Below are positions 29,445 through 48,794 of a stretch of DNA of 64,000 bases, piece after piece (the stretch's first letter is position 1; each line of letters starts with the position of its first letter). The translations under genes were made by a program, and so were the position numbers. This stretch comes from Escherichia coli. Lineage in GTDB: Bacteria > Pseudomonadota > Gammaproteobacteria > Enterobacterales > Enterobacteriaceae. The stretch lies in the NCBI RefSeq assembly GCF_001677475.2, contig NZ_CP015229.1; one strand, written 5' to 3'. Below the pieces are notes generated by a model. It saw only the letters and a list, made by a program, of their open reading frames with translations. It was not told the DNA's origin and made no database searches.

Positions 29445-29495
29445 GCAAATGCAAATAGTTATCAATAATATTATCAATATATTTCTGCAATCAAT
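29445..29495. promoter_or_regulatory. Fur-box region in fepA-fes divergent promoter
   Basis: AT-rich gcaaatgcaaatagttatcaataatattatcaatat resembling GATAATGATAATCATTATC iron-box repeats. Confidence 0.6.
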
Positions 29496-38992: not shown

Positions 38993-39017
38993 GATAATGA
39001 AATTAATTATCGTTATC
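38993..39017. promoter_or_regulatory. Putative Fur box in fepD-entS divergent promoter
   Basis: gataatgaaattaattatcgttatc between fepD start (38980) and entS start (39091). Confidence 0.5.
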
Positions 39018-40341: not shown

Positions 40342-40354
40342 CTAAAGGTGCATT

Positions 40355-40399
40355 TTCCCCTCACCCTAACCCTCTCCCCAAAGGGGCGAGGGGACTGTT
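40355..40399. repeat. GC-rich palindromic intergenic repeat, copy 1 (family name uncertain)
   Basis: ttcccctcaccctaaccctctccccaaaggggcgaggggactgtt; imperfect palindrome; near-identical element at 48749..48794. Confidence 0.6.
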
Positions 40400-40421
40400 A
40401 GTGCTCTAATTTTATGTTTTA

Positions 40422-41387
40422 TCAATCTTTTTTAAACAGTGAATTAAGTCTGTCCAGCACTTGCATGGCGCTGTAGTAATCCAGGCGGAACGTCTCGGTT
40501 CCCAGCGCATAAACCTGCTTGTTTTGTACTGCGGGCAGGTGTGCGAGCAGCGGATTAGCATAAATAGCATCGGCGTCTTTCTGATCACCGGCGAACAGGA
40601 ATAGTGACTCGCCATTTAACCCTGCAGCCAGATTTTCCCCACCAAGCTGAATGATGTCATGGCGTTTGCCCTGGCTTTGGCTGGCGTTTAAGCCTGCGGG
40701 CAACTTCGCCAGCGTAAAGCCGAGTTGTTCCAGCATCTGCCCTTGTGCTGATTCCGGCGTCCAGAGATTGGCACTGTGTGCAGCGGCAGTATAGACAATG
40801 GCAGTGATCGGCTGCGGCGGTAATTTGATTTGCTCTTTCGCCGCTGCCAGTTGCTTATCAAACTGTGCAATCCGCTTTGCCGCTTGTTTCTCATGCCCGG
40901 TAATTTCGCCAAGCTGCGTTAACAGCGACTGCCAGCTTTTGTCGTCGTAATTGATGATTAATGTCGGGGCGATGGTAGAGAGCTGATCATACAGCGCCAG
41001 CGCCGAATCACCGCCGGTTGCGCTAATTAAAATCAGATCCGGCATTTGCGCGGCAACGGCTTCTGCACTCGGTTCGCCGATATAGAGCCGTTGCAGTTTG
41101 CGTTCTGTCGCCACCTTGCTCCACTGGCGTAAAAAGCCCTGGTCATCCGCGACGCGGTTATTTGGCGTGGTCGCGCCGCTGGCGATCACCGGAGCATCAA
41201 TCGCCAGCAGTGAGCCGGTCAAGGTGACGCTGGTGGAAACAATACGCTGCGGCTGGCTTTCCAGGGTATGAGTGCCACGGCTGTCAGTAATCTGACGCGG
41301 CCAGTCGGCAGCCTGAACTACGGCTATTCCTGAAAGCAAAAGTCCTGTTAATAGAAGGGCGTTGCGGTAGAGCGAGGCGAGTCTCAC
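40422..41387 (-). CDS. fepB: Periplasmic ferric enterobactin-binding protein FepB
   Basis: 321-aa [29 protein letters not shown]... Confidence 0.95.
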
Positions 41388-41526
41388 AAATCAGCTTCCT
41401 GTTATTAATGAAGTTAATGCTTCTCATTTTCATTGTAACCACAACCAGATGCAACCCCGAGTTGCAGATTGCGTTACCTCAAGAGTTGACATAGTGCGCG
41501 TTTGCTTTTAGGTTAGCGACCGAAAA

Positions 41527-41547
41527 TATAAATGATAATCATTATTA
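41527..41547. promoter_or_regulatory. Fur box in fepB-entC divergent promoter
   Basis: ataaatgataatcattatt, close match to GATAATGATAATCATTATC. Confidence 0.65.
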
Positions 41548-41575
41548 AAGCCTTTATCATTTTGTGGAGGATGAT

Positions 41576-42751
41576 ATGGATACGTCACTGGCTGAGGAAG
41601 TACAGCAGACCATGGCAACACTTGCGCCCAATCGCTTTTTCTTTATGTCGCCGTACCGCAGTTTTACGACGTCAGGATGTTTCGCCCGCTTCGATGAACC
41701 GGCTGTGAACGGGGATTCGCCCGACAGTCCCTTTCAGCAAAAACTCGCCGCGCTGTTTGCCGATGCCAAAGCGCAGGGCATCAAAAATCCGGTGATGGTC
41801 GGGGCGATTCCCTTCGATCCACGTCAGCCTTCGTCGCTGTATATTCCTGAATCCTGGCAGTCGTTCTCCCGTCAGGAAAAACAAGCTTCCGCACGCCGCT
41901 TCACCCGCAGCCAGTCGCTGAACGTGGTGGAACGCCAGGCAATTCCGGAACAAACCACGTTTGAACAGATGGTTGCTCGCGCTGCCGCACTTACCGCCAC
42001 GCCGCAGGTCGACAAAGTGGTGTTGTCACGGTTGATTGATATCACCACTGACGCCGCCATTGATAGTGGCGTATTGCTGGAACGGTTGATTGCGCAAAAC
42101 CCGGTTAGTTACAACTTCCATGTCCCGCTGGCTGATGGTGGCGTCCTGCTGGGGGCCAGCCCGGAACTGCTGCTACGTAAAGACGGCGAGCGTTTTAGCT
42201 CCATTCCGTTAGCCGGTTCCGCGCGTCGTCAGCCGGATGAAGTGCTCGATCGCGAAGCGGGTAATCGTCTGCTGGCGTCAGAAAAAGATCGCCATGAACA
42301 TGAACTGGTGACTCAGGCGATGAAAGAGGTACTGCGCGAACGCAGTAGTGAGTTACACGTTCCCTCCTCTCCACAATTGATTACCACGCCGACGCTGTGG
42401 CATCTCGCAACTCCCTTTGAAGGTAAAGCGAATTCGCAAGAAAACGCACTGACTCTGGCCTGTCTGCTGCATCCGACCCCCGCGCTGAGCGGTTTCCCGC
42501 ATCAGGCCGCGACCCAGGTTATTGCTGAACTGGAGCCGTTCGACCGCGAACTGTTTGGAGGCATCGTGGGTTGGTGTGACAGCGAAGGTAACGGCGAATG
42601 GGTGGTGACCATCCGCTGCGCGAAGCTGCGGGAAAATCAGGTGCGTCTGTTTGCCGGAGCGGGGATTGTGCCTGCGTCGTCACCGTTGGGTGAGTGGCGC
42701 GAAACAGGCGTCAAACTTTCTACCATGTTGAACGTTTTTGGATTGCATTAA
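41576..42751 (+). CDS. entC: Isochorismate synthase EntC
   Basis: ATG at 41576 ([30 protein letters not shown]); 391 aa. Confidence 0.95.
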
Positions 42752-48748: not shown

Positions 48749-48794
48749 GTTCCCCCTCACCCTAACCCTCTCCCCGGTGGGGTGAGGGGACTGA
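48749..48794. repeat. GC-rich palindromic intergenic repeat, copy 2
   Basis: gttccccctcaccctaaccctctccccggtggggtgaggggactga; near-identical to 40355..40399; preceded by three 10-mer direct repeats (gaatgttggc) at 48718..48747. Confidence 0.6.

Follow-up and report, generated by a model that had tools for sequence, protein, structure and literature searches.

Does the AT-rich near-palindrome at positions 41527–41547 of the window (the whole 64-kb stretch of E. coli DNA analysed here) constitute the Fur operator of entC, and does it act on entC alone or also on the divergently transcribed fepB? These 21 bp read TATAAATGATAATCATTATTA, and the initial annotation had taken them for a Fur box in the fepB–entC divergent promoter. 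The sequence that it quoted is indeed present: the classical 19-bp Fur box, ATAAATGATAATCATTATT, occupies 41528–41546, and the 21-bp interval merely adds one base on each side (no strand is assigned to this box, to its core, to the extended operator or to the downstream hexamer described below). The location between the two genes was also correctly recognised, the box being flanked by entC (41576–42751, plus strand), which encodes isochorismate synthase and is the first gene of entCEBAH, and by the divergent fepB (40422–41387, minus strand, GTG start at 41387), which encodes the periplasmic ferric-enterobactin binding protein. The downstream gene is thus a gene of iron homeostasis: NCBIfam model NF011591 (EntC) matches it over 1–391/391 with 864.5 bits, and the divergent neighbour is likewise named by NCBIfam (NF008200, FepB, 519.4 bits); both assignments agree with the RefSeq annotation. 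The fur gene itself lies outside the window.

In the list of open reading frames entC begins at an in-frame GTG at 41564; we took the ATG at 41576 as its start because the protein beginning MDTSLAEE... aligns with the EntC model over its full length of 391/391. A Shine–Dalgarno sequence, GGAGG, can be read at 41566–41570 (plus strand) and is conserved. The distance from the end of the 19-mer to the ATG is 30 bp, as the initial annotation had estimated. The gap between fepB and entC measures 188 bp, with a GC content of 36.7% versus 52.1% for the whole window. The arrangement is practically universal in the species: the 401 bp around the site are found at ≥95% identity in 5417 of the 5426 complete E. 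coli genomes, and the annotation is always fepB on one side and entC on the other.

The site was said to follow the Fur consensus at most positions, and it does, with 15 of 19 positions identical to GATAATGATAATCATTATC and mismatches confined to positions 1, 2, 3 and 19. Positions 4–18 of the box, AATGATAATCATTAT, are a perfect consensus match over 15 bp. The best core for a single Fur dimer is the 7-1-7 inverted repeat TGATAAT-C-ATTATTA at 41533–41547 (TGATAATCATTATTA), centred on C41540, which agrees with the 7-1-7 motif TGATAATnATTATCA at 13 of 14 positions and is the top match in the 64-kb window in a full Hamming scan. When the whole window was searched with the 19-bp consensus at up to three mismatches, the entC box was not returned, because it has four, and the fepD–entS box was returned instead. 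At the lower threshold of at least 15 matches there are five 19-mers in the window, and every one lies in a gap between ent-cluster genes that is under Fur control (fepD–entS, fepB and entC). Simulated 64-kb windows, drawn from first-order Markov models of the window (n = 300), contain on average 0.17 hits with ≥15/19 matches, and 38 of the 300 (~13%) have at least one. The raw count of 15/19 is therefore modestly unusual and weak evidence; the strength of the match comes from the perfect 15-bp core.

For a measure that weights the positions, we built a symmetrised 23-bp log-odds weight matrix (PWM) from ten E. coli K-12 Fur sites (gpmA, sufA, cir, bfd, ryhB, sodA, fhuF, yoeA, mntH and fecI), leaving out entC. 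Their centre coordinates were those of Chen et al. 2007 (Table 4, PMC2189734), converted to NC_000913.3; seven of the ten have footprint or gel-shift evidence in the same table. The ten sites align in register as aaTGATAATnATTATCAtt, while fur, tonB and fecA were excluded as their footprint centres are out of register. The highest PWM score of the 64-kb window, 23.8 bits, belongs to the entC site, centred at 41540, and this value was reached in 0 of 200 simulated windows (mean of the maxima 12.5 ± 2.6, largest 20.5), although the matrix is not fully independent of entC, since the published model behind the ranking of the training coordinates had itself been trained with entC included. A PWM scan was the check that the initial annotation had itself named, and its outcome is strongly positive. 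The training sites score 23.9–30.4 bits, and we count the entC score as lying within that range. Overlapping hits surround the main one, with centres at 41534 (17.0 bits), 41552 (11.7 bits) and 41537 (8.0 bits); the three stronger hits, at 41534, 41540 and 41552, stand at −6, 0 and +12 relative to the main centre and together cover 41525–41561, or 37 bp.

The sequence, moreover, is one that has been published. Two Fur boxes are described for the fepB–entC region, "Fur box 2 (5'-ATAAATGATAATCATTAT-3')" for entCEBAH and "Fur box 1 (5'-AAAATGAGAAGCATTATT-3')" for fepB, which do not overlap; the +1, −10 and −35 that belong to box 2 all precede it, and plasmid constructs carrying the fepB–entC region show iron-controlled expression (PMC5020551). 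The window 19-mer ATAAATGATAATCATTATT is identical to Fur box 2 (PMC5020551). Brickman et al. 1990 reported two distinct DNase I footprints, fepB at 623939–623969 and entC at 624054–624102 of NC_000913.2 (PMC2189734, Table 3); we took these footprint limits, and the promoter elements of the same study, from secondary sources and placed the footprints on the window through the K-12 annotation and a window/K-12 alignment. The 49-bp entC footprint maps to 41522–41570, which we treat as the extended entC operator. In the ranking of Chen et al. 2007 the strongest entC site has 23.1 bits at 624072, −36 from entC, within a cluster of four sites over 37 bp, and entC is tied sixth among the clusters of Table 4 (PMC2189734). 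Position 624072 maps to 41540, the centre of our top PWM hit, so that the two scans agree in centre and in the 37-bp span, and nearly in score (23.8 versus 23.1 bits).

The 5' edge of the mapped footprint falls exactly at GAAAAT, from which a series of in-phase hexamers runs on: GAAAAT ATAAAT GATAAT C ATTATT AAAGCC TTTATC ATTTTG. This array fits the binding of several Fur dimers. One member of it, TTTATC at 41553–41558, agrees with ATTATC at five of six positions, has an invariant TTAT (n = 75, see below) and lies under the 11.7-bit hit centred at 41552; it is a likely contact for an additional Fur dimer. ChIP and transcriptome work counts both entCEBAH and fepB among the direct Fur targets of E. 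coli CFT073 and MG1655 (PMC7157518). Fur binding and iron-dependent expression are thus taken from the literature, while the sequence match, its statistical strength, the position and the conservation were computed here.

The counterpart in E. coli K-12 is not merely similar: from 41415 to 41620 the window is base-for-base identical to the K-12 entC operator region (Fur box 2), a stretch that takes in the box, the footprinted region, the putative −35 and −10, the Shine–Dalgarno sequence and the ATG. There is no difference between the two strains at the entC operator; they differ in the length of the intergenic gap, which is 374 bp in K-12 and 188 bp in the window. Within E. coli as a whole, the 81 bp at 41500–41580 are identical in 5258 of 5416 genomes.

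Conservation beyond the species was followed with a scan anchored on the EntC protein, one genome per species, which gave 80 Enterobacteriaceae loci from Escherichia, Citrobacter, Salmonella, Enterobacter, Lelliottia, Leclercia, Kosakonia, Klebsiella, Kluyvera, Pluralibacter and Pantoea. In 80/80 species the orthologous box, at 17.1–30.2 bits, outscores every other PWM hit in the 400 bp upstream of entC, and a divergent fepB lies within 1200 bp of entC in every one of these loci. The centre of the box is 32–40 bp from the ATG in 75/80 species; in two of the five exceptions residue 21 is the first one covered by the protein match, and the other three have insertions.

An alignment of the 75 distinct orthologous entC upstream sequences shows conserved islands split by variable sequence. 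From the promoter toward the gene these are TTGACA (41486–41491), which is invariant, a variable 17-bp spacer (41492–41508, conservation 0.60), TAGGTT (41509–41514, 0.94), the 19-bp Fur box (41528–41546, 0.93, with AATGATAAT invariant), the hexamer TTTATC already mentioned, the Shine–Dalgarno region (41563–41575, 0.92), and the ATG with the next 6 bp (41576–41584, 0.95). Further upstream of the promoter the mean column conservation is 0.69, versus 0.93 in the box. The identity with the published sequence, the footprint, the PWM score and the conservation in 80 species all support the reading of the site as the Fur box of the entC promoter, and we regard it as practically certain that this is the entC Fur operator, a site already known, described in 1990 and experimentally characterised.

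The conserved islands also point to the promoter on which the operator would act. TTGACA at 41486–41491 (plus strand) is a perfect consensus −35 hexamer, and its invariance and position are consistent with the promoter arrangement described for the region (PMC5020551). TAGGTT at 41509–41514 (plus strand), separated from it by the 17-bp spacer and standing out at 94% conservation beside the 60% of that spacer, is the putative −10, although it matches the consensus at only 3/6 positions; the pair ends 14 bp upstream of the box. A simple sigma-70 scan of the region missed TTGACA-17-TAGGTT, with its 3/6 match at −10, and returned hexamer pairs only inside the AT-rich box; these pairs were dropped as promoters in favour of the conserved one. 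Transcription of entC would then start near 41521–41523, with the Fur box just downstream, so that the operator would cover roughly +1 to +49. We infer the exact −35, −10 and +1, and likewise the step of initiation that is blocked.

We read the site as the primary Fur operator of the entC promoter, from which the enterobactin operon entCEBAH is expressed. When iron is sufficient, Fe2+-loaded Fur dimers nucleate on the 7-1-7 inverted repeat around 41540, and further dimers occupy overlapping or adjacent hexamers, for a total cover of ~41522–41570, a stretch that begins at the putative start, includes the 5' leader and reaches the ribosome-binding site. Fur bound in this way would occlude the start site and the initial transcribed region and so block transcription of entCEBAH from TTGACA-17-TAGGTT. 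When iron is scarce, Fur loses its metal and dissociates, and entCEBAH is transcribed. On the other strand, fepB is controlled by its own, weaker Fur site ~85 bp away.

Three other explanations of the palindrome deserve to be weighed against this one. It might have arisen by chance in a gap rich in A and T and play no part in regulation, a suspicion that the GC content of the gap (36.7% against 52.1%) invites and that the 38 of 300 simulated windows with a 15/19 match would seem to encourage; but none of the 200 simulations attained the 23.8-bit PWM score, nearby spacer columns vary among the 80 species but the core does not, and both footprint and reporter data have been published for the site (PMC2189734, PMC5020551), all of which makes coincidence extremely improbable. 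Nor do we see any real prospect that the palindrome works in the RNA of the entC 5' leader, by forming a hairpin or being targeted by an sRNA, instead of as a DNA operator. The box does lie downstream of the putative +1 and would hence be transcribed into the leader; however, the fold of that leader is unremarkable (−11.7 kcal/mol, z = −1.16, with 27 of 200 shuffles folding as well or better), and the 1-nt centre of the inverted repeat cannot form a hairpin loop. A search of the entC leader against Rfam gave no family match, the sole hit being spurious at E = 0.69. With this z-score, this 1-nt centre and no credible Rfam hit, the RNA-structure reading was rejected.

The remaining alternative concerns not whether the site is an operator but how far it reaches, namely that the entC box is one shared operator repressing both fepB and entC. 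Such an arrangement is suggested by the "divergent promoter" in the title of the initial annotation and by a whole gap of only 188 bp in this strain, and Fur can polymerise along DNA. Against it stand the two distinct protected regions and the two non-overlapping Fur boxes of the literature (PMC2189734, PMC5020551). The window itself carries a separate fepB box, GAAAATGAGAAGCATTAAC (the published "Fur box 1"), at 41413–41431 on the minus strand, with 15/19 consensus matches and PWM hits of 11.7 and 10.0 bits centred at 41425 and 41419, and over 95 bp separate it from the entC box, which lies beyond the entC −35. We therefore consider a single shared operator very unlikely. Of the earlier wording, the placement in the fepB–entC gap stands, and the implication of one operator for both genes does not, since fepB has its own footprinted Fur site. 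The palindrome at 41528–41546 is best read as the operator of entC.

Comparable sites exist elsewhere in the window. Both fepD–entS and fepA–fes are likewise divergent promoters of enterobactin genes with Fur boxes, and they supply the other top PWM hits of the window (21.5 and 20.6 bits). Each has one footprinted cluster of Fur sites between its genes, whereas fepB–entC has two separate operators (PMC2189734, Table 3); the published Ri values (PMC2189734) and our PWM both rank the entC site first among the three regions. The fepD–entS cluster at 38993–39017 contains GATAATGAAATTAATTATC, whose 16/19 is the highest raw consensus count anywhere in the window, and gives PWM scores of 21.5 bits (centre 39005) and 13.9 bits (at 39011) in a known footprint (PMC2189734). 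The fepA–fes cluster, a known operator at 29446–29480, contains CAAATGCAAATAGTTATCAATAA (20.6 bits) and a further hit of 12.0 bits at 29458–29480; the flanking genes fes and fepA are confirmed by the RefSeq annotation. Outside E. coli, a close parallel is entC of Klebsiella pneumoniae NTUH-K2044, where a Fur DNase I footprint of ~29 bases and co-regulation by RcsAB have been reported (PMC7298118). In Klebsiella-group loci of our scan, TAAATGATAATTATTCGTAAT is found at an equal distance from the entC ATG, and the right half-site diverges, reading ATTCGTA where the window has ATTATTA.

The entC site is a textbook operator through which iron status governs enterobactin synthesis, and its recognition here changes nothing in that picture. 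It can anchor the annotation of the E. coli ent/fep cluster in the window, and it serves as a positive control, showing that real regulatory sites can be recognised from sequence alone. The fepB–entC region has, for its part, already found practical use as a bidirectional cassette for iron-controlled expression (PMC5020551).

A weaker group of PWM hits (15.1, 11.7 and 9.0 bits) falls in AT-rich sequence at 2894–2944, in the sfmF–fimZ intergenic region. The 15.1-bit hit, at 2910–2932, was set aside as a Fur site, its score lying inside the simulated maxima (12.5 ± 2.6, largest 20.5), and the group probably reflects just AT-richness; we know of no Fur control of fimZ or sfm. The sfm/fimZ fimbrial genes themselves (window 1–5000) are only ~26 kb from fepA–fes. 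In K-12 the two are separated further by the DLP12 prophage and other genes, and the window strain probably lacks that prophage.

On the fepB side of the gap the window departs from K-12. The fepB footprint, 623939–623969, maps to ~41407–41437 of the window, and the end of the fepB box reads ...CATTAAC here and ...CATTATT in K-12. K-12 MG1655 has a GC-rich insertion of ~186 bp in the fepB leader, adjoining the fepB Fur box, which the window does not have; the insertion site corresponds to window positions 41405–41416, with the junction near 41414/41415, and the insertion itself to ~4039–4224 of the K-12 alignment record. It contains two inverted repeats of the type GGGAGAGGG...GGGTGAGGGG. The intergenic length is 374 bp in K-12 and 188 bp in the window because of this insertion, and of 5426 complete E. 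coli genomes 2755, or about half, have the K-12-type junction. The compact 188-bp allele of the window looks ancestral, because a fepB–entC gap of 187–188 bp is the modal length across the 80 Enterobacteriaceae species.

In the compact allele only ~26 bp separate the fepB operator from the start codon of fepB, and ~85 bp separate it from the operator of entC. With such a spacing, Fur on one operator might contact Fur on the other, through a DNA loop or through polymerisation, or the fepB leader might behave unlike that of the well-studied K-12 allele; we hold either effect to be improbable. Were it real, the two alleles, which are about equally common in E. coli, would differ in how iron controls fepB and possibly in how fepB is coupled to entC, and the entC Fur box itself would still be the known operator.

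The K-12 insertion has relatives in the window. The 3' ends of the convergent genes entS and fepB are separated by a segment of ~80 bp at 40342–40421, which K-12 lacks, the two genes there being 3 bp apart. The core of this segment, CCCCTTTGGGGAGAGGGTTAGGGTGAGGGG (40357–40386, minus strand), is identical to the core of the insertion in the K-12 fepB leader, and a second copy of it with three mismatches is found at 48753–48782, also on the minus strand. The repeat looks like a small mobile or recombinogenic intergenic element, and we take it to resemble boxC. FepB has 321 residues in the window versus 318 in K-12 (...LDRLKALF*), with a differing C-terminus encoded at 40422–40450 (the translation was read by eye), and this difference coincides with the repeat element just downstream of fepB.
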